This document shows positions 2,675 through 32,200 of a DNA stretch of 64,000 nt, piece after piece. The stretch's first letter is position 1. Every line of letters starts with the position of its first letter. A model generated the notes under the pieces. The model was not told the DNA's origin. It did not search any database and saw nothing but the letters and a program-made list of their open reading frames with translations. This stretch comes from a virus (lineage: Duplodnaviria; Caudoviricetes), in IMG/VR virus record IMGVR_UViG_3300021400_001346, positions 32,001 to 96,000 of that record. The stretch is one strand, 5' to 3'. The translations under genes were made by a program, and so were the position numbers.

Positions 2675-3502
2675 TTATTTTCTCCTTTCCCAATTGAGTT
2701 TGATAGTTGATAAGGTTTCATTTAATATTTGACGGACACGTTCACGGGTGATGCCGAGTTCAAGTCCGATGGCTTCAAGTGTATGTTCAGAGCGCCAATC
2801 TTCTGGATCAGTAGGTTCGCCGAGTCCGAAACGCATTTTGATGATGGTTTGGACACGTGGTTTGAAGGTGCTGATGACAGACATAAGGCGGTCATGAGTT
2901 AAACTTTCTTCTGCGTAGCCGCTTGGTGTTGGTTCACTGGTATCGGCGCAAAGGTCGGACAAGGTGTCTTCACTGTCGTCGCCGAGTGGCATATCGATGC
3001 TGTAAGTGTCTGACTTCCAGCCGCGCAATGCTTCAACTTCATCTGCGGTAATACCCATGCGGGCCGCGATGGACTCGTTGGTGATGTCAACACCTTCGTT
3101 GGTGAGGTCGTTGATGGCCGCGCGATACTTTGAAAGTTTGGCGTAGATGTGGGCTGGAATACGAATATTACGACCCTTGTCGGTAATAGCTTTGGTGATG
3201 GCTTGTTTAATCCATGGAGTCGCGCAGGTGCTAAAACGATAGCCAAGGTCTGGGTTATATTTTTCTACTGCGGTGATAAGTCCGGTGTTGCCCTCCATGA
3301 TAAGGTCGAGCAAATCGAGATGTCTATTTTGATAGTTCTTCGCAATAGAAACAACTAGACGCAAGTTGCTATTGATAAGTTGTTCACGTGCGGCCGCATC
3401 GCCATTACGGTATTTATAGGCAAGGTCAAGTTCTTCCTCTGGTTTGAGAAGAGGATATTGACCGATGGTAATTAAATAATCTTTAAGTGTATTTGTGCTC
3501 AT
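2675..3502 (-). CDS. RNA polymerase sigma-70 family factor (RpoD/SigA-like, no region 1.1)
   Basis: Region 1.2 (DYLITIGQYPLL..EE), region 2 (LINSNLRLVVSIAK, DLIMEGNTGL..AVEKY, RFSTCATPWIKQAI), region 4 (TLEAIGLELGITRERVRQI). Confidence 0.95.
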   Translation of the reverse strand: MSTNTLKDYLITIGQYPLLKPEEELDLAYKYRNGDAAAREQLINSNLRLVVSIAKNYQNRHLDLLDLIMEGNTGLITAVEKYNPDLGYRFSTCATPWIKQAITKAITDKGRNIRIPAHIYAKLSKYRAAINDLTNEGVDITNESIAARMGITADEVEALRGWKSDTYSIDMPLGDDSEDTLSDLCADTSEPTPSGYAEESLTHDRLMSVISTFKPRVQTIIKMRFGLGEPTDPEDWRSEHTLEAIGLELGITRERVRQILNETLSTIKLNWERRK

Positions 3503-3540: not shown

Positions 3541-3686
3541 ATTATACATGATAATTTGCACTTGGTCAACAAATTTTTGCCCGGCCTGAATAACTTTTCG
3601 CGGCGAGCAACGCGCACTATCCCAATTTAATATTAGGTTTTTATTATTTATATATTAATTATATAGTAGAAGCACGGCTTCGTCAA
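3541..3686 (-). promoter_or_regulatory. Two tandem sigma70-type promoters upstream of the sigma gene
   Basis: TTGACC-17-TATAAT (about 3541-3569) and TTGACG-17-TATAAT (about 3658-3686). Confidence 0.7.
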
Positions 3687-3846
3687 CAATTTTTGCAGCA
3701 TAATCAACAAATTTCCGTCTAGCCCTGAGCAGCTGCTGAGCGCCGCGGAGTGGTAAGCCAAGTCCTGCTGCTGCCGGGAGTGAATGGCATGCCAATCGCT
3801 GCTTCTACCTAAGCCCACCCAACGTCGGGTCGGTCGGGGCAGACGG

Positions 3847-3937
3847 AAAAAGCCTAGTCAGTTTCGACTAGGCCAAACCCAAATAAAAAGGTCCCCTTGC
3901 AGGACCCGGTTCATAAAAAGATTGCGGCAACAATCTT
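3847..3937 (-). terminator. Three stacked intrinsic terminators
   Basis: Minus strand AAGATTG..CAATCTTTTT, GGTCC..GGACCTTTTT and GCCTAGTC..GACTAGGCTTTTT. Confidence 0.8.
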
Positions 3938-4586
3938 ACGTGGTATTGCCGTACCACGATTTACCGCTACATCTGCTGATGCTCACTTTCCGCGGCGAGA
4001 CGACCATTTCTATTTTACGCCACATGGTCGAGGAGTAGTTGGTCAATATTATTTTAGTTACTTGTTTGACTAAGCGCTTGCAACCATCGCGCTAAATCAG
4101 GGGTGCCCAATCCGCATCTGTTTTATTTTCTGTGGTACAGTCCCACGGACCATGCCGGTTTCTCTCCGGCGCCTCCGTGCCCAGGAGTCAGGGTGTCGTC
4201 AGCACATCGTTGGTCCTAGACGGTTGCGGCCGCCACAGACCATTGCCACCTGGATAGTTTTCAAGGCACTATCAATCGCCATCGGAGTTACCTTTGTCAG
4301 CGGCTCCTCAATATGACATATTCTTTCATTAGCGCTCTACCCTTACACGTCGGGTAATTAGCCGCGCTCCTCTACTACTTGCTGCGTGTCAGCTGCACCA
4401 CGTTTGGCCGAATCTCGGGACATACGTGTTACGTCTGTGCCTAACGGTAGATTACGCTCTACTGCACTGCACCGTGTTCTTCCCAGCCGAATTGGTCATG
4501 CCAATTTCTTACTCAACCTTAGTCCTGGTAGCCGAGATATACACGTCACGTTCGTGCGTCCGGCAAGTTATTGCTCTTGCTGCGCT

Positions 4587-4676
4587 AATTCTATACTTCA
4601 ATCGGAGTTGAACCGTCTATTCATCCTAGTCCCTTTGCTAGGCGCGCCTTTCCGCTCGGCCATTTATCATAGAATT
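4587..4676 (-). ncRNA. Degenerate tRNA-like element; anticodon not assignable
   Basis: D arm TGGCCGAGCGGAAAGGC, stem CCTAG/CTAGG with an 8-nt loop, T loop GGTTCAACTCC, outer stem AATTCTAT/ATAGAATT. Acceptor stem irregular. Confidence 0.6.
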
Positions 4677-4732
4677 CGGGAATTAATACTAATGTGGAGG
4701 TTGCCTCCACCCCGCATCGTCTGCGGATGCCT

Positions 4733-4819
4733 TAGTAGCCAATCGGAGTCGAACCGACATCTTCCTCTATCCGGTTTAGGGTGCTCTGTCCGCGGGTATT
4801 GCCCTTGAGCTATGGCACT
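4733..4819 (-). ncRNA. Degenerate tRNA-like element with an enlarged D loop
   Basis: AGTGCCA-TA-GCTC-[20-nt loop containing GGG-CAATA-CCC]-GAGC-A-bulged anticodon arm (loop AACCGGA)-GTCGG-TTCGACT-CCGAT-TGGCTACT. Confidence 0.65.
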
Positions 4820-5153
4820 GTATATGCTTTATAGTGCATTGGCTAGCACTTCGTTGACTTAGTGCAGTTTTGGTTGTTTAAAGGGGCGTTACTCCCTGCC
4901 AGCTAGTTTCTTGTCCACCCTCCGATCCTGTAAACCGAAGGGGCGGCGCACGACTGCCGCGTCGGAATGATTGGGGTCTATCCTACCCAGTGAGGTCTCG
5001 CTCACTTCGAGAGTCGCTTTGGCTAGATGCTATGCTCATCGTCCGGGTGTTTAGTCTCTTAAGCCCAACTACTTAACGGCTAGTTAACCGACAGCAGGCT
5101 CTTTCACGTTTTGACGTCTTAGTATTCACCCTGGTTACTGCTGCGTGGGTGTT

Positions 5154-5202
5154 TTGGGACCAGCCAAGGAGTTAAACCTCGGACTACCAGTCGTGCCGGC
5201 CA
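5154..5202 (-). ncRNA. Minimal tRNA-like domain (acceptor stem plus T arm, no anticodon arm)
   Basis: GGCCGGC..CTGGTAG..CCGAGG-TTTAACT-CCTTG-GCTGGTC-CCAA. Confidence 0.4.
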
Positions 5203-5420
5203 TAGTTATCATGGGGAAGAGTTGCAGGTAATCTGCCTGCCTCTTGCTACGGGGAATTTAAGCCCGTGCTCGGCGATTTCTCTGAGGTACGTTGTCCCCG
5301 CCTTGCGGCTGCCGGTCATTGGGTTCCAACCCATGTAATAGGGTGCTCTCTTCTTTGTTTTTTAACGAGGGGTATACGCCGAGCAGGGAGATGTTCCTCA
5401 ATTAATTTCTTACTATATTT

Positions 5421-5449
5421 ATTATACTACTTCGTGGCGGCTTAGTCAA
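5421..5449 (-). promoter_or_regulatory. sigma70 promoter for the 1.5-kb ncRNA
   Basis: TTGACT-17-TATAAT with no downstream ORF. Confidence 0.8.
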
Positions 5450-5679: not shown

Positions 5680-5928
5680 CTATTCAGTCTTGCTAGTTTC
5701 TAACGCAGTGTTGCCTAAAGCATATTCGGCAACTTCAACGTAAACGGTCTTTGCGACCTTGCGGGTACCGACCTTAACTAAGATACCTGCGGCGACCATA
5801 GCATTAGTAGTGCCGGTCTTAACTTCCTTGCCGACCTTTTCGCTGATTTCGGCTAAAGTCATGCCCTTTTCGGCTCCCTTTAATGCATTAACGACTGCAA
5901 CTCTAGTTTCATTTACTTTAACGTTCAT
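5680..5928 (-). CDS. Small winged-helix-like DNA-binding protein, 82 aa
   Basis: GMTLAEISEKVGKEVKTGTTNAMVAAGIL; paralogue of 8853..9128; strong RBS. Confidence 0.7.
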   Translation of the reverse strand: MNVKVNETRVAVVNALKGAEKGMTLAEISEKVGKEVKTGTTNAMVAAGILVKVGTRKVAKTVYVEVAEYALGNTALETSKTE

Positions 5929-5962: not shown

Positions 5963-6196
5963 ATTATACACCTTTTATTCGGTCTAGTCAAGAGTTATTT
6001 TGACTAGGTAGTTAATTTTTTAAGATGTATCTTTTTACTTCTTATTAACTAACTACATATATATTATACACCTTTTATTGGGTTTGGTCAATTGCAAATC
6101 TTGGCTAAGTAGTTTGCATTTTTGCGACCGTAAGATGTTTTCTTTTCTTCACCACCTTACATATAATATTATACGCCAAAACTTCGACTATGTCCA
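5963..6196 (-). promoter_or_regulatory. Three stacked promoters about 100 bp apart upstream of the wHTH gene
   Basis: TTGACT, TTGACC and TGGACA, each -17-TATAAT, at about 5963-5991, 6063-6091 and 6168-6196; no ORFs between them. Confidence 0.75.
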
Positions 6197-6237
6197 TTGT
6201 AAAAACTGGCTAGATAAGTTTGCATTTCTTGGCTTCC

Positions 6238-6430
6238 TGCTGCTTCTATGCAAGTTAGTCTTGACAAACCCGGCCCGAAGGGCAGACGGAAAATAAGCAC
6301 AACTCGGTAGAAAAGTCAAGCAAAAAATTGTGAAAGCGCTTTCTTGCTGCTGCTTCTCAAAAAACTCTTGACAAATCCGGATTTTTGGGGGCAGACGGAA
6401 ACAGACGGATCCGTCGGGCCAGACGGAACG
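6238..6430 (+). repeat. Two copies of CTGCTGCTTCT..CTTGACAAA.CCGG..GGGCAGACGGAAA plus clustered AGACGG motifs, oriented opposite to the array downstream
   Basis: Copies at 6238-6292 and 6346-6401, further AGACGG at about 6403 and 6421, palindrome GACGGATCCGTC. A related copy lies at 3798-3850. Confidence 0.8.
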
Positions 6431-6609
6431 CCGCGAAAAAAAGACGACCGAAGTGGTCATCTATCTTTTCTTTGGTTTCGTTCTTTTATTTTTGCCAGGC
6501 TTGAAATATGGATGCGGCAACAAGTCTTGACCGCTATAACTATTAGTATGGTAAGGACCTATTGACCCCAGCAAGTATAATAAGTTTCTTTGTGATGATT
6601 TCATATTTA

Positions 6610-6849
6610 CTACCTCTCATGATATGCGGCATCAAGCCATAGGTTAGTCCAGTGCCAACCTTTAATCGTGTCTTCTACCACCGCGGCATCTGTAATTTCA
6701 TACCAGCCATAAGGTTCTCTGTCAGTAGACCTAATAACAACTACATCATTTGGATTTGCTTTGCGAAGTACACTCATTAATTCTTTTACAGTCATTGTGT
6801 GGTCAGTGGCGGAGACCGAGACCACGGCTTTATTTTTGGAAAGCATCAT
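6610..6849 (-). CDS. Hypothetical protein, about 79 aa
   Basis: ORF; MTVKELMSVLRKANPNDVVVI resembles small phage proteins. Confidence 0.55.
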   Translation of the reverse strand: MMLSKNKAVVSVSATDHTMTVKELMSVLRKANPNDVVVIRSTDREPYGWYEITDAAVVEDTIKGWHWTNLWLDAAYHER

Positions 6850-7294
6850 AACTTTCTCCCATCCGTCTACTTGGTCTGTCATGAGCAAACAACCATGCGC
6901 CCTTATTTTGAATATAAACAGTAAAGTTTTCATTGTTATAGGTAAAATCTATATAATCGCCGAAGCATTTACTGTGATTTCTTTCAGTAATAACTATACC
7001 TTTATAATTGTGGTATTTTTCCCACACTTTACTTTTTATTGAAGGAAGTTGTATAGCAATTTTTCCGTCTACTGGTAAATGGTTATAATCAAACCCTACA
7101 TTTGGTTTTAAATTACTGAAAACTCGGTCAAAACGATTTTCTCTGATGGCATCTAAACATCCGTCTAAGATATCTTCAGGAGTAACTGCCATTGTATAAG
7201 TATTAGTAACGGTTGTTTTTGTATGTTTTAGTTTTCCGTCTGCATCATAAGATGCGTATGTAATAGTTGTTTCTTGTCTTTCTAAGATTTTCAT
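6830..7294 (-). CDS. Hypothetical protein, about 154 aa
   Basis: ORF with GGAGGG RBS. Confidence 0.65.
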   Translation of the reverse strand: MKILERQETTITYASYDADGKLKHTKTTVTNTYTMAVTPEDILDGCLDAIRENRFDRVFSNLKPNVGFDYNHLPVDGKIAIQLPSIKSKVWEKYHNYKGIVITERNHSKCFGDYIDFTYNNENFTVYIQNKGAWLFAHDRPSRRMGESYDAFQK

Positions 7295-7313
7295 AACTTC
7301 CGTCTCCCTCCGT

Positions 7314-7595
7314 CTAGTCTTCACCTAATTCTAATTCTTCTTTTGCCATTGCAATGAATTGGTCTTTACTTAAATCTAACTTGGCATTAAGTATTTCTGA
7401 TACTTCATAAGGGCTTACACTTGAATATATTGCGCCGTCCATATCTACAAACTTATAATTCCAATAGATTTGTTCTAATATTTCAGTGTCGCTCCAATCT
7501 GGATAATTATCACGATACCAATCATATTCTTGGCGCAAATTTTCTTCGTCTAGGTCAATTGTAAACTCTTGATTAATACTAAAAGTCAATTGCAT
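7314..7595 (-). CDS. Hypothetical acidic protein, 93 aa
   Basis: ORF with AAGGAG RBS; D/E-rich. Confidence 0.65.
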   Translation of the reverse strand: MQLTFSINQEFTIDLDEENLRQEYDWYRDNYPDWSDTEILEQIYWNYKFVDMDGAIYSSVSPYEVSEILNAKLDLSKDQFIAMAKEELELGED

Positions 7596-7613
7596 ACCTT
7601 CTTCTCCTTCCGT

Positions 7614-8231
7614 CTAGGCGCGGGCTAATTCCCACGCCTTTAATAAAATTGCTAACTCAATTTTACTATCTTCAAGTGCCGTGTGTTCTTCCTTATAGTC
7701 CGTCTGACCAGTTAAGTATCTAAACACGGTTTCGGCTTTTGCTTGGCAACGAGGTCTTTTGTGTTTTGTCATAAAGCCGTTTTTTCTACAAAATGTTTTA
7801 TACTCTTCCGTCTCAGTGATATGTGGGTCGGTTAAACCTTTCCATATATCTTTAATTCCGTCTGCGGTTGGATTGGTTTTGCTGTTAAGTTTTTCGCAAG
7901 TCTTTGCAATCGCACGGGTATCAAAGCGTGAATTATAAGCATAAATTCCGTCTACGCCATATTTATTCATATCTCGTTTTAACATACGCAAGATATAAGA
8001 CCATTTGGTTTTCTTACAATATCCGTCTGCTAAACGTTGGTAATAAATTGGCAACTTGTTGGCATAATATGCGGTCTTCATGAGGTTGGCATTATCAAAG
8101 ATTTCGCTGGTGAGATAATCACGAGCCTTAATGATGTTGTCCGTCTCACTATCGTAAACGACATAGCCTAAGTCGTAAACTGATGGGTTGAATACCCCTA
8201 ATGTTTCAGTGTCAAGAACAATAATTTTCAT
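7614..8231 (-). CDS. DEDDh 3'-5' exonuclease
   Basis: ExoI VLDTET, ExoII AYNSRFD, ExoIII HTALED. Confidence 0.9.
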   Translation of the reverse strand: MKIIVLDTETLGVFNPSVYDLGYVVYDSETDNIIKARDYLTSEIFDNANLMKTAYYANKLPIYYQRLADGYCKKTKWSYILRMLKRDMNKYGVDGIYAYNSRFDTRAIAKTCEKLNSKTNPTADGIKDIWKGLTDPHITETEEYKTFCRKNGFMTKHKRPRCQAKAETVFRYLTGQTDYKEEHTALEDSKIELAILLKAWELARA

Positions 8232-8303
8232 GTCCGTCTGGTTCCCCTTTCTCTCTTTCTTTTTTCTTCTTTATGATAATATTATATCATGAATAGATAT
8301 TGC

Positions 8304-8608
8304 TGTCAATACCTATTTAAGAATTCCGTCTACCGCGAGGTGATAAGCCATTATCCGCAGAATAATATTAACGTATGTAATATTAGAGAGTTTTGTATCC
8401 TTGCACTATCAACTGCAAGTTGTGGCAACGAAATTCTTAAATAGATACTATTGTCAATACCTATTTAAGAATTCCGTCTGCCGCGGGCTGGCTAGTGCCA
8501 TTATTCTCACGTGCGCTTATGGATTTCCACCTCAGGAATAGAAAGATTTGCCATTCTTACCTATTTGCCCCTGTTAAGTCGTGGCACGGAACTCTTAAAT
8601 AAGTATTG
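8304..8608. repeat. Two tandem ~150-bp cassettes, each with ~28-bp terminal inverted arms around a variable core
   Basis: Left arm TACCTATTTAAGAATTCCGTCTRCCGCG, internal GCCATTAT, right arm AAGTYGTGGCA(A)CGRAAYTCTTAAATA. The 60-70-nt cores are unrelated. Confidence 0.8.
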
Positions 8609-8852
8609 TTATTTCCGTCTGGTGGAAGGTTTCACTTAGGTTAACCATCATTTTACTAGTAATAAGTGAAGACCTTCCGTCTACCCATTTCTCCTTGGGC
8701 GGCTTACCCTTACGTGCGCCTACTATACCCTACGTGTCCGTCTGGCGAAAAACTTGATAGACAATGAGACCATTTTCTCATTAAGATAGGTTCAGGCTAA
8801 GGGGTCCGTCTGAGCCCATCTTAATGAGAGGAAGGAATTACCTTCCGTCTCC

Positions 8853-9128
8853 CTATTCAGCGACTAATTTGTAAACGGTGTCGCTATAAGATTTATGACC
8901 GATGACTTCTTTATCATAGACAATGTCGGCAACAAACTCTCTCTTTCCGTCTGTGTTGACAATACCTTTTGTCTTTAAGGTATTAATAGAGCCTGTTTTA
9001 AACTCTTTGCCACTGACTTTTTTGATTTCTCTTAAAGTCATTCCGTCTGGGAATTGCTCCTTATTGTTTGATAAGATTTCAACGAATGATTTTTGAGTGT
9101 CGTTCATAACCCATTTTCTGTCTGCCAT
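8853..9128 (-). CDS. Small winged-helix-like DNA-binding protein, 91 aa
   Basis: GMTLREIKKVSGKEFKTGSINTLKTKGIV; paralogue of 5680..5928. Confidence 0.7.
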   Translation of the reverse strand: MADRKWVMNDTQKSFVEILSNNKEQFPDGMTLREIKKVSGKEFKTGSINTLKTKGIVNTDGKREFVADIVYDKEVIGHKSYSDTVYKLVAE

Positions 9129-9163
9129 AGTTATTTCTCCTTTCCTTAACTTTCTACTATATA

Positions 9164-9620
9164 ATTATAGCATACTTGAAGCAATCGTTCAAGGGTTTAT
9201 TTCAGTTTTCCGTCTGCCGTTTTTCCTTTTTATAAGTGGAACTCTTTAACTTTCTTACCTTAATATTATATCATAATATTTAAGGCTTTGCAAGAACTAT
9301 TTTTAACTTTCCGTCTGCGAACTTTTGCTCGGCTTACGATTACTAGGTTAATTAATTCTTACTACTATATTATATCATATTCTCATATGATATTCAAGCA
9401 CTAATTTTAAGTTTCCGTCTGCGCCGTTCCTTTCAACCAGCGCCAACTCAACTTTCTTCTACCTTAATATTATATCATAATATTTAAGGCTTGTAAAGAG
9501 ATAATTTTATCTTTCCGTCTACCCCAAACTTATTTGAGGCACGGCTTACTTATCTCTTGTATGTAAATATTATATCATATTTACATATAAGAAACAAGTA
9601 GTTTCTACTCATTTCCGTCT
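9164..9620 (-). promoter_or_regulatory. Five tandem ~101-bp units, each AGACGG plus a -35/extended -10 promoter
   Basis: -35 boxes start at 9597, 9497, 9397, 9293 and 9192, each 17 nt from TG-x-TATAAT, with AGACGG exactly 23 nt upstream. Confidence 0.9.
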
Positions 9621-9937
9621 GAAGGTCCGCTCACGCTAACTCTACGATTTAATGTAGTCAACACCTCATAGAATTGACCTGCGACCAATTTATTCCATTT
9701 TCCGCCTGGGTTATCAATTGTGGCTTCTTCTTGAAACACAACCTTTCCGTCTGCATTTTGTCTGCCATATCTAATGTTATATTGTATAGACTTATAGTCA
9801 TCATCTGCAATTATGGTTGTGCTATCAATACAAACATAGGTTCCGTCTAGTGGCGCATATTCTTCACGCATAATGGCATTTAATTCTTTTTCTAACTTTT
9901 TTATTTGTCCGTCTGTGATTTTAATTTTGTTATTCAT
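9605..9937 (-). CDS. Hypothetical protein, about 110 aa
   Basis: ORF with its own promoter (9974-10002) and RBS. Confidence 0.65.
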   Translation of the reverse strand: MNNKIKITDGQIKKLEKELNAIMREEYAPLDGTYVCIDSTTIIADDDYKSIQYNIRYGRQNADGKVVFQEEATIDNPGGKWNKLVAGQFYEVLTTLNRRVSVSGPSDGNE

Positions 9938-10046
9938 AACTTTTTCCCCTTTCAATTTTTTCTTACCTATAATATTATATCATGCCTACTACGGCTTTGC
10001 AATACCCCAATTCATTCTTCCGTCTCTAAGACGGAAGGCTTAGGGC

Positions 10047-10517
10047 TCAACCTTGGAGCACCTTACCTTCGCTTCCGTCTACATCGGCATTTAATACTGT
10101 TGCAAGGATTGAGGTGTGAGGGTAAATCTTAATTGCGGTTCTTCCTCCGTCTGCCCATTGTTTGCAATTAACTCCATAGTCATCGAGTAAAATGCCTGTT
10201 TTAGTTTTTGCAAAGTCGCTCTTGTTTTGTCCATTGCGCATAATAATTACTCTACGCATAGGCAATTCAGGAAGGTATTTTTTAATCCGTCTGCGCTTAT
10301 CTTTATCGGCTTGTTTGTTTGGCGAGGCTGATAAAATACGAACGCTATAACCTAACCCAATTAAGGCTTTAATTCCGTCTAAGTGTCCTTGAATTGGTGG
10401 AAGATTTGCAAAGAAACCTTTTTCCGTCTCAAAACGATTTCTCCATCCGTCTGCGCTATAGAAATCGGCAATAACTCCGTCCATATCACAATAGATAAAC
10501 TTTTTTGTCTTTTTCAT
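10047..10517 (-). CDS. HAD-family 5'(3')-deoxyribonucleotidase (NT5C-like)
   Basis: IYCDMDGVIADF, FFANLPP, ILSA, ILLDDY..N..W. Ends at TGA; TAG follows 7 codons later if read through. Confidence 0.85.
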   Translation of the reverse strand: MKKTKKFIYCDMDGVIADFYSADGWRNRFETEKGFFANLPPIQGHLDGIKALIGLGYSVRILSASPNKQADKDKRRRIKKYLPELPMRRVIIMRNGQNKSDFAKTKTGILLDDYGVNCKQWADGGRTAIKIYPHTSILATVLNADVDGSEGKVLQG

Positions 10518-10705
10518 AGTGTTTCCCCTTTCTATCTGATATAATTATATCATGCTTACATCTGCTTGTCAACCCGTCTGCCTGATATAATTATGCAGTA
10601 GTTAGGAATGTTATGGAATGCTTAGAGGAGGTTCACCCCTAACTACTCTATAATTATATCATAGTGGCGGTGGCTTGTCAATGCCACCAACCACCTTTCC
10701 GTCTG

Positions 10706-10930
10706 CTAATATTCAACTCCAAGTTGATTACAAAGCCTTCTAATCATTTGCGACCTTGTTTCGAGTTTTCTAACAACCTGTCCGTCTGGCAAAGTCTTCA
10801 TATAGATTTGCTTTTGACTGCAAGCACTATGCCGTTTTCCGTCTGCACTTTTCTCTAGTAATGATACGGTTGTCCATCCGTCTCTATCAACGACCTTATA
10901 CTTTTTAACTTTTGGTTCTTTTGTTTTCAT
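10706..10930 (-). CDS. Small basic hypothetical protein, 74 aa
   Basis: ORF with its own promoter (10955-10983) and RBS. Confidence 0.6.
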   Translation of the reverse strand: MKTKEPKVKKYKVVDRDGWTTVSLLEKSADGKRHSACSQKQIYMKTLPDGQVVRKLETRSQMIRRLCNQLGVEY

Positions 10931-11009
10931 ACCCCTTAATTCCTTTCTAGTAATATTATATCATACTTTTTGTGGCTTGTAAATAGCCTATTTTATTTTT
11001 CCGTCTGCC

Positions 11010-11129
11010 CTATTGTCTTAAAGCAATCCAAACATAGAGTTGTTCGCTCTCTTTTTGTTCCGTCTCATCCGCCTTTCCGTCTGCGACCTTTTGCTTTAAT
11101 TCTTGTAAGCGTTGTTCTAATTCTTCCAT
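11010..11129 (-). CDS. 39-aa peptide MEELEQRLQELKQKVADGK..
   Basis: Own promoter (11155-11183) and RBS; in frame with the upstream kinase across its TGA. Confidence 0.55.
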   Translation of the reverse strand: MEELEQRLQELKQKVADGKADETEQKESEQLYVWIALRQ

Positions 11130-11165
11130 ACCCCTTAACTCCTTTTCTAATAATATTATATCATA

Positions 11166-11603
11166 TCAATATACTAATTGCAATAGTTTATCTTTTAAAT
11201 CCGTCTGGATTTTTTTCGCACATACTTTTATTTTACGGCAATTTAAATTATTATAATATTGCATATCTTTTTCAAAATTTTGTATACAATCCATTAAGGC
11301 TTTTAAATTTCCGTCCGTTTTATTACGTGCCCATCTAAACATTAAGCGGGCTATCCATTCTTCTTTACTTCCGTCTGGAATAATTAGAATAAAATTTACT
11401 TTTAATTTCATAAGTGTTTCAATAACACATGGGTGGGCTGATAAGAAAACATCTTTTCCGTCTGCTTCTATTTTGCGTGCAGTATAAATATAATTAACTT
11501 GCCAATTTTTTACTTTTTTAAAAGTATTACTATCTAAATCAATACCGTCCGTCTCAGCGCACAATGTTGTTTTACCTACGCCACTATATCCACAAAATAG
11601 CAT
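11166..11603 (-). CDS. P-loop NTPase, nucleotide-kinase-like, 145 aa
   Basis: N-terminal Walker A GYSGVGKTT followed by IDLDS; NMP-kinase-like size. Confidence 0.75.
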   Translation of the reverse strand: MLFCGYSGVGKTTLCAETDGIDLDSNTFKKVKNWQVNYIYTARKIEADGKDVFLSAHPCVIETLMKLKVNFILIIPDGSKEEWIARLMFRWARNKTDGNLKALMDCIQNFEKDMQYYNNLNCRKIKVCAKKIQTDLKDKLLQLVY

Positions 11604-11638
11604 ATTTTACCCCTTTCGCCCTTTCTCACTAGTTAGGT

Positions 11639-12124
11639 TTAAAACCTAACTAGTGTTTCTAATACTTTACTAACGCCCTTAATTTTTCCGTTTTTAGCAA
11701 AGTTGTAATATTTAGTATTTGAACGATAGACACCATAAGGGTCGACCATAATGAGTTCTTTATACTCGCCGTTTTCATAGTCTTGCAATTGTTTTTCACT
11801 AATACTTGCGTATGCGACCGAGTTCGTGTATTTAATTTCATAGTCGTGATTATTAAGTTTTAAATCTACACGACCAGCACTATATTTACTAGCACTTTTT
11901 TGATTTTTAAGTAATAATTTAATCAAGCATTCAACGACCGAGCCACGATTTAAAACTTTGCCATTTCTAGCGACCTCGCACGTAATTTGCGCTTTATTGT
12001 CTAGCATATTGCATAATGAAATTATAGCATCATTGCAAGTGTGATTTTTTGCGTTTGCTTTTGTGTCGTTGATATACATATCACGGACGGAACGAATAGA
12101 TAAAGTTTGAATTGTGTTTTCCAT
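11639..12124 (-). CDS. Putative PD-(D/E)XK restriction-endonuclease-fold nuclease
   Basis: RGSVVE ... RVD-LKLNNHDY-EIK pattern; first gene behind two strong promoters. Confidence 0.55.
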   Translation of the reverse strand: MENTIQTLSIRSVRDMYINDTKANAKNHTCNDAIISLCNMLDNKAQITCEVARNGKVLNRGSVVECLIKLLLKNQKSASKYSAGRVDLKLNNHDYEIKYTNSVAYASISEKQLQDYENGEYKELIMVDPYGVYRSNTKYYNFAKNGKIKGVSKVLETLVRF

Positions 12125-12162
12125 AAAATAACCCCTTAATTTATTCAACTTTTTAATAAGTC

Positions 12163-12301
12163 TTTTAACTTATTACACTTATAATTATAAACTTTTATTT
12201 TTTGTTGTCAATACTTTTTTTAAAAGTTTTTTAATTTTTTTTGTAATTCGTTTTTTAACTTATTACACTTATAATTATAAAGATATATTTTATAGTGTCA
12301 A
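12163..12301 (-). promoter_or_regulatory. Two tandem consensus promoters sharing a 28-bp direct repeat
   Basis: TTGACA-17-TATAAT and TTGACA-16-TATAAT; repeat TTTTAACTTATTACACTTATAATTATAA; A/T tracts upstream. Confidence 0.8.
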
Positions 12302-12434: not shown

Positions 12435-13397
12435 CTACTTCTTATTCAACCCAATCTCCGTACACCCGTACCAGTCGATCCACCATCTTTCTCTTTCATT
12501 CAACAGTCTTCTATCATTCACCCTCTCAACTACTTCTCAGTAGAAATCTTCAATCAGATGGTCCTCATACAACTTCTCACCTCCACTACTCTCCACTCCT
12601 ATCATCTTTTTAGCGTGTTGGTACCATCTCTCCTTAATATTAACTGCCTGCCCAACATAGCAAACCCTAACATCATCTTTCAACACCAATCTATAAATGC
12701 CGCAACAACCGTCGGCTTCTTCTCTCTTCACCAATCGTTGCATGGCTGGCATTCAGACCTTTCTCCATTCGATGGCCGCCAATTCACTTTTCAAATCCCC
12801 GTACTCTTCCTCGATCGTCCTAATCAGTTTCACTAACTTCATGTCTCTCCCACTCACTTCAAGCGGCCAACCATTTTCGCCACCTTCTTCCTTTCAGCCG
12901 CGCAAGACCGCTAACCTATTCTCTGTCTGTAGCCTCTCCAATTCTTCCACCAGTCTTTGAACTTCTTCTTTGCGGCGACCCAACACGCTGTCGACTTGAG
13001 TCAATTCTTCCTTGGCATGCACCAAATCGGCCGCCACCTTCTCCATTTCAGCTTGGCGTTCATTGAGAGCCGCGAGTTGTTGTCCAGCATGGGCGCTCAA
13101 GTCTTCCTGTTGACCCTTCAGAATATTCGCCCTCTCTTCTCAATAATTCACCTGGTTTTGAAGTTCATCAATGCGGCCACATTTGGCTAATAGAGCCTCA
13201 TTTGACGCTGTTACCTTCTTTAACTCCTCAGCCGCCTTATCTCGTTCCTCAATAGCCTTAGTTAACTTAACTACCAATTGCCTAACTTCATCGGCATGGT
13301 CGTCACTTTTATCCTTCTTATATTTAATTAAAACGGTTGTAACAATTAACGCCGCGATTAATACCATCGCCACGCTTACGCATATTCCTATTACCAT
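12435..13397 (-). CDS. Membrane-anchored coiled-coil GIY-YIG endonuclease, 320 aa; four internal TGA
   Basis: TGA at 13140, 12894, 12753 and 12537 join three track ORFs. N-terminal hydrophobic helix, GIYRL..CYVGQAVNIKERW, and LNERERWWIDWY..GLN beyond the last TGA. Confidence 0.85.
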
Positions 13398-14816: not shown

Positions 14817-16625
14817 ATGCTAGTAGACGATTTTTTTGATGATAGTTATATAGATCCTGAAATTGAGGACTATATTAATTTTTTAGACGCAGATGAGCAA
14901 GAAACCACCGGCTTCTTAACTAAAAAGCGCATTGACGCGCATTTTCAAGAGTGCGGCGAAATGCTCAATTTTTTCATTGCCTATCCAGACCGCTTCGTTG
15001 ACATCATTACGCCGCATGAAAGCCACTTCCACCTATTCTTCTTCCAACGTATTATGATTCGTTGCATCGCGCGTGGAATTGCAACTTTCGAGACCTTCAG
15101 CCGTGGTACTTCAAAATCCTTCCTCGCCGACCTCGAAAGATACTTGCACTGCATGTTTGTGCCGCGCCATGATACAACCATCACCGCGGGTACAAATAAA
15201 CAGGCGGCCGAAATCGCTAAACAAAAGATAGTTGATGACTTATGGGTGAAGTTCCCTCTTCTCGCTAACGAAATGCAAAAGCGTAAAGTGGCCGGAAAAA
15301 TTTTAGACGCCTATAAAATGGGTAAAGACTATGTTGAATTTAATTTTAAAAATGGCTCTTCACTCGGCCTCGGAAACGTAAGAGGTTTGCGTCGTAAATC
15401 TCTAATCTTCGAAGAAGTTATCGAACAAGATCCAGTCAAAGTTAATGAAGTCTACATTCCTTTACTTAACGAACCTCGTAAACTTTACAACGGCCTTATT
15501 AACCCTTACGAACCACAATCTCAACAAATATATATTACTACTGCGGGCTATCAAGGCACCTTTGCCTATCAAAAGCTTATCGAAATTTTATGCCGCTCTG
15601 TCTTCGAGCCCGACCATTACTTTGTCCTTTGCGGTACTTATCGTTTGCCGCTCTCCGTGGGGCTTACCTCTAAAAAGCAAATCGAAGACATTATCAACGC
15701 ACCTTCATTCAGCCGCGCGTCCTTCGAACGTGAATATGAAAGCCGCTGAAGTGATGCCCCTGCCGGCGCGGCCTTTAGCAGTAGTGTTGTTTCTTCCTTA
15801 CGTCAAGTTAAAAAGGTTGAACTTAAGGATAAACGTACGGAACTTCAAGTCTCTGAACAGTCATGCTTCTATGTCATCTGCGCCGATATGGCGAAGGATG
15901 GTAGCGCAGACACGGCAGTAGGTGTAGCCAAGGTCACTCCAAAAGACCATTACTTCACTTACAAGTTCGTCAATCTCTTTACCATTCCATCTACTGACTA
16001 CATGGTAGTCGCAAATACTTTCAAGAAAACCGTTCTAGCCTATAATGCCCGATTACTCATTTACGATGCTAATGGTATTGGCGCCGCGATGAGAGACTGA
16101 TTAAACAAAGAAACTACTGACGAATTTGGCAATTTATTAGAAGGTTTAGGTATAATTAATCCGCCAACTTCCTCAGAACGAGACTTGATAAGATATCCAA
16201 AAGATAAGACAATATGTTATGAGATAAAATCTGGAGGAAAAATTGGAGAACAAATCCATTATTTCTTCTTTTCTCGTATGAGTACAGGCGCAATTACTTA
16301 TCCAATTAAACTTAACGAAGCGTTATCTCTTTACTCAAAGAACAAAACATTTATGCAAATGAGTATGCGCAAACAACAAGAATATCTACTTCCTTTCAAA
16401 ACAATGGATTTAATGGAAGAAGAACTTAAAAACTTAGATATCGTTAATACATCTGACAATATGTCCAACTCTTTGCGTATTGTAAGACGTAACCCCAACA
16501 TTCAAAAAGACTTTTTCTCCATGGCGGAGTATTTAGTCTGGGGAGTTAATCAACATTTAGAACTTGAATATTATCGTACTAAGCGTAGTCGTTCTCAAAA
16601 ACGTATTATCGCTTTAGTAAACTAG
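14817..16625 (+). CDS. terL: Terminase large subunit, 602 aa; TGA at 15747 and 16098
   Basis: LFFFQR, FSRGTSKS (Walker A), VRGLRR, LIFEE (Walker B), YITTAG, FEREYESR[W], ADMAK..D nuclease motif, KDFFS. Confidence 0.9.
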
Positions 16626-16638
16626 GAGGACGATTATT

Positions 16639-18186
16639 ATGGCGAAAAAACAAGATAAACCATTAACATCTGCTGAAGAAACTACCAACTTCAGAACCGA
16701 TCGAGCTAAAAAAATAAAAGAACTTTACGCCGATGATACGGCTGCTCGCCACAAAAGAGACGAAAGTCCTCGTAACTCCGGCTCGAACTACCTTACCGCG
16801 GCTCAAGTCAGGGAGGCGCTTTCAAAAGCCATTTCTGACCATACCAGTATTTCAGAGACCTCTAAGAAACTTTATGCTATCAATCCTATTTATGCATCTA
16901 TCATTGACTATATGGCAGATGTATACTTATGAAGATATAAAGTCATTCCTAGAAAATTATACAATAAAAGTAAAGCAAAACTTCATAAAACTAAAAAAGA
17001 AGACGACTTTACTATCATGTATAACCTCATGATTAACGTTGTAGATGGTTTAATGATTGAAACACAATTTCCAAACCTTCTTACCGCCCTCTACATTAAT
17101 GGCTCAGTTTATCTAACCACTTATTGTAACCCAGACAGCCTTACTATTGATACTCTAGTATTGCCTGACGCTTACTGCCGCAAAATTGGCGAAACACAGT
17201 ACGGAAGCGGCATTATCCAATTTGACTTTTCTTATTTTGACCAGTATACTTCTGAAGTAGATTTAAAAGACGCTTTAAAAATGTTCCCAAAAGAGTTTAC
17301 TAAACTCTATAATCGCTATAAGAAAGATAGAACTGACAAATGGCAAACTCTTGACCCACGTTTTTCTACCGGCGTCTTATTAAATGAATATGGTATTCCA
17401 ACTTACTTCTATTTATTAGGAGGCATCTTAGACTATGAACAATACCAAGATAATGAACTTGAACGTAATGAAAACTTACTTCGTTACCTTGTCGTTCACA
17501 CCATGCCACACTACGAAGATAAACTTATCTTTGAAATGGACGAAGTTAAAGCCATTCACCAATCTATTAAAAAGATTGTTGATACTGGCGACAAGGCTCG
17601 TTTAATTACTACTTTCGGTGACGTCCATGTTGACCGTATTGCCGATGAAGACACTACTGCCAACGAAGTTCTTGCTAAAGCATATGAAGCAATTTTCCAC
17701 AATGCCGGTTTCAATAGCGCTATGTTTATTAGCGACAGTGTTACCGCACTTGAAATGTCATTGATTCGTGACCGTGCAAAGGTCTGGAGATATGTTAATC
17801 AATTTTTAAATTTCTATACTATTGCAATCAATAATTGATTTGATTTTAAAGAGTACCAAGCGGATATTGATATTTTACAAATCTCTCCATATACTTATAA
17901 AGATGATATAAAATTGTTTAGAGATAATGCCACATTAGGTGTTGGAAAACTAGACTATTTTATCGCAGCCGGAATAAAGCAAAAGGACATTCCAGACCAA
18001 CTTAGTTTGGAAGACCATTTACATCTTAATGATATCACTCCAATGCAAACGTCTTATACACAAACTGCGGAAGACCGTGCGGCGGATGATAATAAATCAG
18101 ATGATACCAAATCAACTTCATCTGGGATTGAGCCATCAGACGAAGACGAAGAAACATCATCTTCTACTGCCACTAATGAGGACTAA
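16639..18186 (+). CDS. Portal protein, 515 aa; TGA at 16930 and 17836
   Basis: Position between TerL and protease, size, C-terminal PMQTSYTQ plus acidic tail; continuous frame. Confidence 0.75.
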
Positions 18187-18188
18187 AA

Positions 18189-19694
18189 ATGAAAAAGCAT
18201 CCTACTATTAATTATAGCTGGCCAGCCTTATTGTTTGATTTAAAAGCAGATCCAAGTAATGGCAACTATTCTCGTGGAAAACTTGGTGTTTTCTATAAAG
18301 GCGAGACAGCGGACCACCGTTATTTCTCAGATGCCTTTTGTGAAAAACTCATTAAAACCCTACCTTACGCACCTGTCGTAAGTCATTATGACGAAGAAAA
18401 GGACGATTTCGTAGGACACGCAACTCAACAAAACATTTATGGTATTGTTGACCCTTGTGTAGAACCAACTTTCCAAGTTATGGAAGACAACAACACTTGA
18501 GCAATCTGTGATGTCGTCCTCTATACAGATCGCCCTGACAAGGTTGGCGAAATAGCGAAAAAGATTATTGGTCATAGTCAATCTTTGGAGCTAAATCCAG
18601 ACACAGTGGATTATAAAATCAACTATGACGAAAAGAAACACTTCAAAAATATTGAATTTACCGCAGGAGACATTATTGGCGTAAGTGTATTAGGCTCTGA
18701 TCAACAGCCAGCATTTACAGGTTCCGCATTCTTCGAATACGACGAACAATTTGCCGCAAAGATGAAAATGCTTAAAGAATACTGTGAAAAGCAACATGAT
18801 CAAGATAACAGTGGAGGCAAAATAGTGAATTTACAAGAATTTATGAAGCTCTCCTGGGGTGACATTTCTCAAAAAGTCTACGAAGCAATTAGTCACGAAT
18901 ACGAAAATGACGCATTTGTTATGCCAGTTGACATGTTCGAAGACAGCGCAATTGTTCGTTTCTACTATTATGTAGAAGGTAATGTAAAACTTATGCGTGT
19001 AAAATACTCCATTAATGATAGCGGCGACGTTACATTAGGAGATGTGAACGAAGTTCATATTACATACGAAGACGTGATTGAGAATAGTGTAGGCGTTAAC
19101 AATGCCGAAGTCACAACAACAGAAGGTAGTTCTGTTGCCACACCTGAAACCAATGCAAGCGAAGGTATTTCAACCGCTAGTGAGCTTAGCACTACAACTG
19201 ACAATATCATCACCGCCGCATCTGATGTTTCAACAACTCCAACAGAAGACCCTGTTAATACTGATGAGGTAGCATCTGCTGCCGAAAATTCATCAGCAGC
19301 ACAACTTGAAAACGCTGAAGTCACCGACACAGAAAAGAAAGTGAGTGACGGTAATGAACAAAACTCAACAACAAAAGAAGAGGGTGCAAGTTCTGCCTCA
19401 TTTACTGATAGTGAAAGAGCGCAATTTGAAACCCTTAAAAGAGAAAAGAAAGTAAATCTTCTTAACTCTTACAAAGACAAAATTTCTGAAGAAGACTATA
19501 ATAACTTTTTAAATGCTATTGATACCTTCGCAGAAGAAAAAGACCTTGAGCTTGAAGTTCTTAAAGCTTACCAACGTAATCTTGAAGAAAATTCAACTCC
19601 AATACGCGGAGTTTTCTCATTGAACTCCATTATCAATCACAATGAGAACAAAGACGATTTAGCTACCTATATTCGTAGACAATTAAATCGTTAA
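18189..19694 (+). CDS. Prohead protease/scaffold, 501 aa; TGA at 18498
   Basis: FVGH, QSLEL, VSVLG..QPAF protease-like N-terminus; low-complexity acidic scaffold C-terminus. Confidence 0.75.
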
Positions 19695-29205: not shown

Positions 29206-32200
29206 ATGGCTACAGACAATGAAATTAAAATTACATTAGAAGCTGCAAAATCAGTTAGAGACACCATCAAACAAGAAGGTGGTTTTTCTGGTAGAAAAGG
29301 CGAAGCCTCATTAGATAAAGTTAATAATGTTATTAAGACTATTGAAAAATTAGACCCTTCAAAAACTGACCTATTAAATAAAGAATTAAAAAACTTATCT
29401 TCTTTATTATTGAATGCATCTAAATATACTAAAGGAGTTAATTCTGACCTTGCGCAAGCAGTTACCAAATTACAAGAATTAAAAACTCAACAAAAGGATT
29501 TACAAAAAGAATTACGTGAGGCTTATAAAGCCCGTAAACAATCTATTGAACAATTAAAAGAAGATAAAGAAATTAGTAAATATACCTTTAGAAGTAAAAA
29601 AACAGGTGAAAATGTTTCTTCTTATAAAACAATTTCTGCTTTACATCAAGAAGGAAATCTACAAATTTATAATCAAGCGGGAACTCTTTTGAAAGGCGCT
29701 GCCGCAGACACTGTTTATCAAAATAGTTTTGGACAAGCAGACCTTGCCAGCCAACAAGTTGAAGCATTAAAAGAAAAACTTCAACAAAGCAAAACAAGTG
29801 CTGAACAAGTACAACTTCAAGTTGACCAATTAGAATTACAAGCAAAAGATGGAAAAGCTATTGCTGAAACACTTAAATTTGCTGGACAAATAGACAAAAT
29901 GACTGAGCCACCTGAACAAGATGTCGGTGGATTAGATACTGATGATATTAACTTACAAACTAATGCCATTGACAAACAAAATACTTCTCTTGGTAAAGCA
30001 TTTAAGCAATTTTCTATTTATGCAATTGCTTTAAGAACAGTTAAATCTGCTTTACGTGAAGCCACTCAAACTATTGCTCGTTTAGACCAATATCTTACTG
30101 AACAAGCAATGGTTACTGGTAAAACTCGTAAAGAAACTTATCAATTGCTTGAATCTTACCAAAGCATGGCAGGATCTCTTGGCACCACTACCAAAGAAGT
30201 TGCAGAAGTTACTACTCAATTCTTACGTCAAGGTAAAAGTGTTCAAGACTCTCTTAAATTAACAGAAGCCGCAATTTCTGCCGCAAAAGTTGCAGGTATT
30301 AGTGCGACTGAATCTGTTAACTATTTAACCACCGCTTTAAACGGTTTCCAATTAAGTGCGGATCAAGCTATCCGTGTTTCTGATAAATTCGCCGCAGTCG
30401 CTGCAACCGCCGCTACATCATACGACGAAATTGCTATTGCATTAAGTAAGGTTGCTGCACAAGCCAATCTTGCTGGTATGTCTATCGACTATACAACTGC
30501 CCTTTTAACAAAAGGTCTTGAAACAACTCGAGAAGCGCCAGAAACAATTGGTACTGCACTTAAAACTATTATCGCTCGTATGCGTGAGCTTTCCGATTAT
30601 GGTGAAACTCTCGGCGGCGATACTGATATCAACAACGTTGAATCACAATTGGCATATGTTGGTATTCAATTACGTGATAATAATGGAGAATTACGTTCAA
30701 CTGAAGACGTTTTAAATGATTTAGGACAAAAATGGGATACTTTAAATAGTAACCAACAAGCGGCTGTTGCAAAAGCACTTGCTGGTACACGTCAACAATC
30801 ACGTTTAATCGCTATGATGTCTGATTATGAACGTGTTCTTGAATTACAACAAATTTCTGAAAGATCTGCAGGTGCAACTGTTGCACAAATGGCAACCTAC
30901 CTTGAAGGTATGGAGGCCGCAACAAATCGTGTTCGTGTTGCATGAGAAACCATTATTACTACTGTTGCTAACAATGATTTAATTATAGGCTTAGTTAATA
31001 TTGGAGCTAATATATTAGACAGCATAAATGGTATCCTTGGAACTATGCCAGGTATGATTGCGGCCGTTACAATGTTATCTATACTTGGTTTAAATATTGT
31101 TGGTAACAAATTACGTGAATATCAAATTAGTAAAATACAAGCCAATTTAGACTTACAACGCGCTCAAGCTGACAATAAGGCTAATCAAGGACAAATTCGT
31201 GCAAATATTATTCAATTAGCACAAGAAAAGAAATTACAAAATGCTCAAGCAATAACAACAAAATTAACAGAAGCAGAAACTGCAGCTAAAATGGGAGATT
31301 TAGCCCAAGCTAAAAAATTAACTGCTGAAGCTAAACTTTTAAATACTGAAGGTGATGACCAAATTAATCAGCAATTCGAACTTTTAGAAGGTTTTCAATT
31401 ACAAGCTGATAATTTGGCTTTACAATCTTCTAATCTTTTAGGTCTTGCTGGAGCTTGAAGTGGTATTTTGACAATAGTTAATGCGATCAATACTGCATTA
31501 GGCATTGGCAATCTCCTTCAAATGGCAAGAGTTGCTTTAAAAGGTGCAGAAAATAAAGAAGATAAAAAAGCAATTGCTAACACGATGTTAAAAAATAAGG
31601 CAGAACTTAAAGGTTTACCTGGCCTTATTGCTAAAGCTTATGCTAAATCTGTTGCAAGTTTAGGACCAATTGCTGGCTCTATTGCATTTGCGTCTATTGC
31701 GGCTGCAATCACTGCCTTAGGAGTTATGGGTGGTATTGCAATCGCTGGAGGATTTAAACAAGCGGATCCATTAGACGATATTAATAAAACTTCTAATTCT
31801 ATTTACCAGCTTAATAAATCTACAACCGCTATTAAATCTACTATTTCTTCTTTTGAAAAGTTAGATGAACATATTATTAAAACTAAAAAAGATGCAGAAG
31901 ATATGGCTACCGCCCTCGAAGGTGCAGCAGATAAATTATCTTCTGATACTGAAGGTACTCTTCACAATATGTTAGGTCTTCGTGCCGGACAATCTGCACA
32001 AGATTATTATAAAACTTTAACTAGTGATAAACAACGTTTAGAATTTTTAAAACGTTATACAGAACTTTCTAATACATTAATTCGTCAACAACATGAACAA
32101 ATTATTAGAACTATTCGACAAAATAAACTTAATTTATCATTAGCTGAAAATGCTACTGCGGCAGCCGCAGTATATGCCCGTAACAATCTCGTACTCTATG

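Follow-up and report, generated by a model that had tools for sequence, protein, structure and literature searches.

A dense, one-directional field of AGACGGA sites across the putative early operon of an uncultured Firmicutes phage

In Cluster A mycobacteriophages, a monomeric repressor of these temperate phages (gp71 of L5; TipsytheTRex), which combines an HTH with a stoperator domain, binds asymmetric sites and stops an elongating polymerase only when the site points with transcription; L5 carries just over 20 of these 13-bp stoperator sites, spread over its ~50-kb genome in short intergenic gaps (PMC9283540). In SPbeta, a 15-bp element (SPBRE, the SPbeta repeated element) is found at about ten promoter regions and is read by MrpR (YopR) (PMC10516654). 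Here, we analyzed positions 32,001 to 96,000 of the IMG/VR virus record IMGVR_UViG_3300021400_001346 (115,739 bp, rated 100% complete), an uncultured ~116-kb phage of gut or rumen Firmicutes; these 64 kb are called the window, and positions refer to it. Between 6863 and 11554, the window holds a field of 50 copies of the word AGACGG, nearly always AGACGGA, which all point in the same direction. Judged from the pattern of sites, the closest known kind would be the operator/stoperator system of the Cluster A mycobacteriophages, and a literature search found no paper describing such a dense polar field. An earlier reading of the bare sequence by a model (the sequence-only reading) had noticed the field and explained it as first-entering DNA that is marked as self.

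The likeness to the Cluster A system concerns the site pattern. In both systems the site is asymmetric and occurs in one direction, copies are located at promoters as well as inside transcribed DNA, orientation tracks transcription and the site is lineage-specific. However, the field described here is ~20 times denser than that of L5 (50 sites of ~11 bp in 4.7 kb), and 31 of its 50 sites lie inside coding sequence, at a visible protein cost, rather than in short intergenic gaps. Furthermore, its sites are evenly spaced and confined to one module, the rest of the genome being at chance level, and they belong to a phage with a Firmicute host and without a detected integrase. With the SPBRE/MrpR system, the field shares a repeated element at many early promoters (10 of the 11 in the array), whereas the dense intragenic field has no SPbeta counterpart. 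Membership in this system was rejected, because no homologue of MrpR/YopR or YopP was detectable in the whole genome (best tblastn E 2.1 and 0.15; phmmer E 0.1 or worse).

Short oriented words that run through coding sequence and constrain peptides are also represented by Chi, the FtsK-orienting polar sequences (KOPS), the Neisseria DNA uptake sequence (DUS) and the Haemophilus uptake signal sequence (USS). Those words occur genome-wide, at one per 1–12 kb, whereas the present word is local, at one per 96 bp, and at chance level in the rest of the phage. Its plus-strand form TCCGTCTG has 7 bases in common with GCCGTCTGAA, the Neisseria DUS. As to the host, a Firmicute and not Neisseria is indicated by the promoters, the ribosome-binding sites and the relatives. 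A functional analogy links the module to the first-step-transfer region of phage T5, an early module with a 5'-nucleotidase (dmp), A1 and A2: here, too, a 5'-nucleotidase occurs together with predicted nuclease-type genes and small, putatively DNA-binding proteins, a likeness in gene content. To our knowledge, T5 has not been described as carrying a dense polar word.

Recounting CCGTCT, the plus-strand form of the word, between 6863 and 11554 gave 50 exact copies on the plus strand and one on the minus strand (10029), identical to the numbers of the sequence-only reading, while base composition predicts 0.95 copies across this 4,692-bp region. Both strands of the 64-kb window contain 67 copies, compared to 11.9 ± 3.5 in shuffled sequences. 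A strand-specific scan of the whole 115,739-bp genome detected 15 plus-strand and 13 minus-strand copies outside the array, which corresponds to the chance level; no comparable density exists in the other 110 kb, and the array is unique. Read on the minus strand, the sense strand of the genes in this region, 49 of the 50 copies are AGACGGA. The logo pooled from 253 sites of five phages (the window and the four lineages listed below) is an asymmetric motif of ~11 bp, c-g-C-AGACGGA-a, with no symmetric partner, and these pooled sites showed no other conserved position within 40–50 bases on either side of AGACGGA. At its two ends, the array is bounded by a hairpin and a terminator:

6863..11554, minus strand: field of 50 co-oriented AGACGG(A) sites (motif count), covering 9 genes, 11 promoters and non-coding DNA
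11627..11655, no strand: hairpin with a 13-bp stem between the first operon gene and the array, upstream edge of the field
6442..6462, minus strand: intrinsic terminator, downstream edge of the field
6284..6426, plus strand: four reverse-oriented copies, including the near-palindrome AGACGGATCCGTCg, just past the terminator

The sites follow one another at a mean distance of 96 bp (median 92), with 31 of the 49 gaps between 60 and 130 bp, in line with the spacing near 100 bp noticed before. The coefficient of variation (CV) of this spacing is 0.51 versus 0.97 for random placement, and 0 of 10,000 simulations were equally even; within the window array, no helical phasing was observed at periods of 10–11.5, 30, 50 or 100 bp. 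While 19 copies are intergenic, the 31 copies inside genes yield 32 gene placements, because the copy at 6863 falls in two overlapping open reading frames (ORFs) and is counted twice. The reading phase is xxA-GAC-GGx in 23 of these placements, which encodes A/V/L/P/T/S-D-G; 7 further placements encode E/Q-T-D/E (Glu/Gln-Thr-Asp/Glu) and 2 encode R-R. The word is indeed written into coding regions as peptides of the ADG, VDG and ETD type, as the sequence-only reading had pointed out, and constrains the protein sequence about once per ~30 codons in the module.

Eleven sigma-A-type promoters are located inside the array, and 10 of them carry the word 16–17 nt upstream of the -35 box, at about -58 to -52. 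Across the five phages, 42 of the 253 pooled sites are linked to a promoter at this distance. The idea that a hidden promoter lies behind each site was rejected: the 211 non-promoter sites have neither conserved downstream hexamers nor any other conserved flanking element.

In order to find relatives, IMG/VR was searched on the basis of the exonuclease encoded in the module, which gave 79 loci, and bacterial genomes were scanned for three spaced copies of the word. The hits of the latter scan were mostly chance matches or tandem repeats, and its sole true relative was one short contig (L130) binned with a Clostridium metagenome-assembled genome (MAG). A field of the same word is present in four further lineages, with exonuclease identities between 35 and 83%:

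L003/L004, exonuclease 83% identical: 50 sense copies, 1 antisense
L006, exonuclease 64% identical: 83 sense copies, 0 antisense
L009, exonuclease 41% identical: 44 sense copies, 2 antisense
L130, exonuclease 35% identical: 35 sense copies, 0 antisense

All five arrays have a mean spacing of 70–112 bp and a CV of 0.45–0.63, more even than random (P at most 0.0006), and in two complete relatives the field is again the sole cluster of the word in the genome. The arrays of L006 and L009 end with a few reversed or palindromic copies (AGACGGATCCGTCT). Outside the array, L003 and L006 additionally have opposite-strand promoters whose -10 box is immediately followed by the word, so that transcription would begin within it. 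A small unit conserved downstream of the arrays (L003 13776, L006 14321, both minus strand) consists of an extended -10 promoter directed against the early genes, the word at the start site, ~25 A/T-rich bases and then a terminator hairpin, and may produce a regulated ~45-nt transcript.

Comparison of orthologous genes shows what is conserved in these fields. Most in-array genes of the window have no DNA-level homology to those of L003, yet the site density is equal. Within the exonuclease gene, which shares 77% DNA identity between the two phages, 4 of 6 sites occupy identical alignment columns; of the other two, one has moved by 5 bases, and the other has disappeared, with a substitute 24 bases away. 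Field-bearing phages have 5–9 sense copies per exonuclease gene and 6–7 per nucleotidase gene, compared to 0–1 in the orthologous exonuclease and nucleotidase genes of L005, L007 and L008 (none in the field-less nucleotidase orthologues), and no antisense copy was found in any of the exonuclease and nucleotidase orthologues compared. Some site positions are even common to orthologues with only 35–41% protein identity. From this difference between orthologues, and from sites that vanish and reappear a few bases off, it follows that the DNA word rather than the proteins is under selection, as the sequence-only reading had proposed. Overall, the alignments indicate that selection has long maintained the density and direction of the sites, while individual sites come and go.

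Among the relatives, L005 (exonuclease 74% identical) lacks the word AGACGGA and has 43–45 copies of CCCGACGGAA, which shares the core GACGGAA. All of these copies are in the early module, and they are strictly intergenic, occur on both strands and form clusters with a dominant pitch of 30 bp, as would be typical of cooperative protein binding. Each of these spacers of L005 contains, in this order, a terminator, 1–3 sense copies, 3–5 antisense copies mostly 30 bp apart, an A/T-rich stretch and 1–5 consensus promoters. Antisense small RNAs originating from these clusters were considered and rejected for want of good antisense promoters. In more distant relatives, the nucleotidase and exonuclease genes are retained, and a lineage-specific palindrome stands just upstream of each early promoter (TTAGACGT-N3-ACGTCTAA, TTCGTACGT-N3-ACGTACGAA or TTAGT-N6-ACTAA). 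In dozens of related uncultured phages (L031, L025, L020, L008, L007 and others), a palindromic, operator-like element of their own is located 10–25 nt upstream of the -35 box at every early promoter, with 15–20 copies per locus. Taken together, these elements resemble an extensive natural collection of operators whose specificities have been swapped. Because each distant lineage has its own palindrome at its early promoters, a lineage-specific putative operator at this position is the general rule in this phage group; the AGACGGA field elaborates on this rule, with single half-site-like words spread through transcribed DNA. The sequence-only reading had looked ahead to the same or a swapped motif in relatives, and both were found: the same field in four lineages, a variant in L005 and other operators elsewhere.

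The array takes up the initial 4.7 kb of a block of small genes that runs leftward over ~39 kb and diverges from the head genes (portal at 16639–18186). We infer that this module is the first-expressed, host-takeover operon, and its content of a nucleotidase, an exonuclease and a weakly nuclease-like first gene agrees with the takeover character suggested earlier. Among the individual gene assignments of the sequence-only reading, the NT5C nucleotidase, the DEDDh exonuclease and, as a predicted fold, the winged helix held up, whereas the P-loop and PD-(D/E)XK proteins gave only weak matches. The features of the operon are as follows:

12184..12301, minus strand: two perfect sigma-A-type promoters (12/12 matches) at the operon head, neither with the word upstream
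11639..12148, minus strand: first operon gene, 169 aa, word-free, with a D...E-x-K motif and a weak PD-(D/E)XK-like fold
11166..11603, minus strand: Walker-A P-loop protein, 145 aa, phrog_4182, 4 sites, only weak AAA matches
10047..10517, minus strand: NT5C-family 5'-(deoxy)nucleotidase, 6 sense sites (Pfam E 1e-7)
9164..9597, minus strand: five tandem sigma-A-type promoters with a 100-bp pitch, AGACGG 17 nt upstream of each -35, feeding the 91-aa winged-helix gene
8853..9128, minus strand: winged-helix protein, 91 aa, with a long beta wing (predicted fold, pLDDT 84), candidate reader, role unproven
8240..8852, minus strand: ORF-free stretch of ~600 bp with 7 sites, several hairpins and one promoter (8281–8309)
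7614..8231, minus strand: DEDDh-type exonuclease, 6 sense sites (PHROG 'DNA polymerase exonuclease subunit', E 3e-7)
6610..7595, minus strand: three small genes with no function assigned (93, about 155–164 and 107 aa), carrying the last sites of the field
5680..5928, minus strand: winged-helix paralogue, 82 aa, outside the field, with its own promoters (5963–6091)

The 169-aa protein shows a weak fold likeness to the PD-(D/E)XK nucleases Hjc, RecU and NaeI (Foldseek E 0.04–0.3, pLDDT 73). In the closer relatives (L003, L005–L009, L130), the only ones in which it was traced, its gene has homologues at the same first position, whether or not a field is present. The 91-aa winged-helix protein represents an uncharacterised family with 2–4 paralogues per phage. 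Five tandem consensus sigma-A promoters with a ~100-bp pitch precede the winged-helix gene of L005 as well (6919–7375), where runs of three promoters are found ahead of other genes; the promoter amplification before the winged-helix gene is conserved in the window and L005. The ORF-free stretch at 8240–8852 could be a leader or a small RNA, and hairpin text resembling it also follows the winged-helix genes of L006 and L009; tRNA and Rfam scans of the 64-kb window gave no matches.

With a little less than even confidence, we favour the view that the array consists of putative binding sites of one sequence-specific protein that would control early transcription in a direction-dependent manner. 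The asymmetric ~11-bp site (c-g-C-AGACGGA-a) would be read by a single sequence-specific DNA-binding protein, which is probably phage-encoded. Bound to the promoter-linked sites (-58 to -52), this protein would act on initiation by RNA polymerase; bound to the same-direction sites every 70–110 bp inside the operon, it would cover the whole operon, with the intragenic sites stopping or hindering RNA polymerase in one direction in a stoperator-like manner. Each site would organise ~90 bp, so that the operon would be covered without gaps. The purpose might be a fast and tight shut-off or timing of the nuclease, exonuclease and nucleotidase genes, which would be dangerous once replication of the phage DNA starts; that the effect is repression rather than activation is a guess.

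This preference for a direction-dependent regulator is based on several lines of evidence. The word has a fixed position 16–17 nt upstream of the -35 box at 10 of the 11 promoters, which is a property of the DNA, and its polarity tracks transcription in all five phages (50:1, 50:1, 83:0, 44:2 and 35:0). Selection on the word is evident from sites kept at 77% DNA identity, from their turnover and from the 5–9 versus 0–1 copies in orthologues. The site is self-contained, no conserved flank being present in the 211 non-promoter sites, and relatives carry phage-specific operator-like elements at their early promoters or, in L005, 30-bp clusters. Moreover, the module encodes a winged-helix family, whose gene follows five tandem consensus promoters in the window as well as in L005, and polar sites that block elongation in a single orientation have a precedent (PMC9283540). 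A sequence-specific DNA-binding protein, which the sequence-only reading had already put forward, is still the best candidate for the reader, while transcription control is a likelier job for it than shielding.

Some observations weigh against such a regulator or fit it poorly. The recognition helix of the winged-helix protein (K-T-G-S-I-N-T-L) is identical in phages with different words and also in the word-less L008, which lends no support to this family as the specific reader; covariation of the helix with the word was not seen. A screen for gene presence and absence in three field-bearing versus two partial field-less genomes revealed no evident DNA-binding reader; the field-only genes in this small, partly incomplete set were a sigma factor, two phosphoesterases, anaerobic ribonucleotide reductase genes and several unknowns. 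A simple roadblock needs neither 50 sites nor even spacing, and the evenness in the five arrays (CV 0.45–0.63) therefore suggests coverage more than stops. The L005 clusters, situated in spacers behind terminators and mostly antisense, do not fit an elongation block. In addition, since no integrase was found, there is no obvious need for lysogenic silencing.

It is conceivable, albeit doubtful, that the field is the scaffold of an undescribed nucleoprotein structure, in which the sites would nucleate a polar coat of ~90 bp each or dock a polymerase-sized complex, and the module would be switched, timed or shielded as a unit by a reader of no known family. An explanation close to that of the sequence-only reading is that the field nucleates a coat protecting the first-entering, first-expressed DNA from nucleases during the destruction of host DNA, be they the phage's own or those of host restriction, CRISPR or AddAB. 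The even spacing in all five arrays would suit gap-free coverage, and besides its nuclease-like first gene, the module itself has genes for an exonuclease, a 5'-nucleotidase and a winged-helix protein, the last probably abundant given its five tandem consensus promoters. The operon also adjoins and diverges from the packaging genes; if packaging ran rightward from there, it would be packaged last and ejected first. However, L005, L007, L008 and dozens more phages have the same nuclease, nucleotidase and exonuclease genes and manage without a field, which speaks against a shield that self-protection would require. Considering also that the nuclease gene, its promoters and the other 110 kb of the genome are unmarked, and that a coat encoded inside the field cannot protect at time zero, we regard this explanation as unlikely. 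A lattice of decoy or docking sites, which would titrate a regulator for a delayed, switch-like shut-off or dock polymerase-sized complexes every ~90–100 bp and thereby draw host polymerase, appears quite improbable. Although the 70–110 bp spacing matches the 100-bp pitch of the tandem promoters with one site each, and sites outnumber promoters (50 versus 11), titration requires numbers and neither evenness nor a single direction. Moreover, nothing ties the word to RNA polymerase, and the non-promoter sites have no promoter-like hexamers downstream.

Two further explanations would place the reader of the word elsewhere. At the RNA level, AGACGGA in early mRNA could be a cleavage site of a phage or host endoribonuclease or a site for an RNA-binding repressor. 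Early transcripts would thereby be shut down collectively, in the manner of T4 RegB or RegA. Such a signal would explain both the strict sense polarity and the confinement to one transcription unit, and many copies are indeed situated between ribosome-binding site and start codon: the window has three (7300/7310, 7610, 8234) and L006 about ten. Nevertheless, we consider it decidedly unlikely: the fixed distance of 16–17 nt to the -35 box is a property of DNA, sites directly after the -10 box in L003 and L006 would be severed from the transcript, and the L005 clusters lie mostly antisense in spacers behind terminators without good antisense promoters. The predicted single-strandedness of the word (0.07–0.12) is also no different from that of 7-mers of the same composition (0.09–0.12). 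Very improbable, in our view, is a polar signal for a DNA motor, that is, a Chi-like site taming AddAB/RecBCD coming from a genome end or a word orienting a translocase. In its favour, the word resembles the Bacillus Chi, AGCGG, and is a short, purine-rich and asymmetric sequence with strict polarity; the main array and the reverse cluster also converge on 6421–6863, as Chi sites would around a DNA end. However, the 3.9-Mb MAG that holds L130, the sole candidate host and linked to it by metagenomic binning only, contains 179 copies versus 191 of a reversed control word; 34 of the 179 are on the phage contig, and the remainder amounts to ~one per 27 kb, so that the word is not enriched there. 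The fixed -35 distance, the intergenic L005 clusters with their 30-bp pitch on both strands and the decay to 0–1 copies in close, field-less relatives fit a phage-specific reader instead and further weaken the Chi-like explanation offered by the sequence-only reading.

Beyond the array, the genome places the phage as a distant relative of SPbeta, with a YorL-type DNA polymerase III alpha (38% identity); the record also encodes a topoisomerase II, a RecJ-like nuclease, a DnaB helicase and an anaerobic ribonucleotide reductase. The search for tyrosine and serine recombinases (integrases) in this record, which is rated 100% complete, was negative (PF00589 no match), and a temperate lifestyle is doubtful for this reason; the phage is apparently non-temperate. 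A Pfam search did not name the presumed terminase. Several late genes are full-length only if TGA is read as Trp (14817–19694 and 12435–13397), including the portal gene, a 602-aa ORF located upstream of it, a protease-like gene and a gene similar to GIY-YIG homing endonucleases. The early module has no TGA-as-Trp codons, which fits a stop-codon-recoded phage whose early genes remain host-readable. The window also contains the following gene:

2675..3502, minus strand: phage-encoded sigma-70-family factor with regions 1.2, 2, 3 and 4

This sigma factor is found in the field-bearing genomes G000, G007 and G008 and not in the partial field-less G009 and G010, a comparison of very few genomes in which the syntenic place is covered in G010. 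Behind a consensus promoter (5421–5449), a GC-rich (~49%), ORF-free stretch of ~1.8 kb (3560–5420, minus strand) contains sequences resembling tRNA T-arms, yet has no ARAGORN or Rfam match. It is conserved in the field-bearing G008, partly in G007, and missing at the syntenic place in the field-less G010; this stretch is probably a large structured RNA. At the DNA level, no match to deposited phages, near or distant, was found except for ~100 bp at 6207–6303, where the identity to two Staphylococcus phages of ~140 kb is 77–81%, in unannotated DNA close to one of their ends. This segment overlaps a unit (cttgctgctgcttc ... TTGACAAA ... GGGGCAGACGGAAA) that is present twice in the window, and similar text is found in L006 and L009.

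Contig ends were also compared. The ends of G000 and G008 match one another only via collagen-like repeats and are therefore assembly breaks, not mapped termini, and the 'terminal repeat' of G007 falls within the tandem-promoter repeats of its array. In the distant Phass-1-type relatives G001, G003 and G005, two paralogous exonuclease genes are ~3.3 kb apart, and many contigs break beside them; because these ends fall on both sides of the duplicated gene, they are likely assembly breaks, too.

Phage early regions are usually viewed as strings of small genes with strong promoters. The persistence of the AGACGGA word across phages whose proteins have drifted to 35% identity suggests that its reader contributes strongly to fitness. 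Should this reader be a regulator, the field would be an extreme polar operator system; such a system could account for the way in which large phages silence toxic takeover genes and would be a source of compact, orientation-dependent parts for transcription control. If the reader builds a protective or docking coat instead, the field would represent a new means of dealing with first-expressed DNA. In either case, the word is a simple computational marker of the early module in a large group of uncultured, stop-codon-recoded gut and rumen phages.

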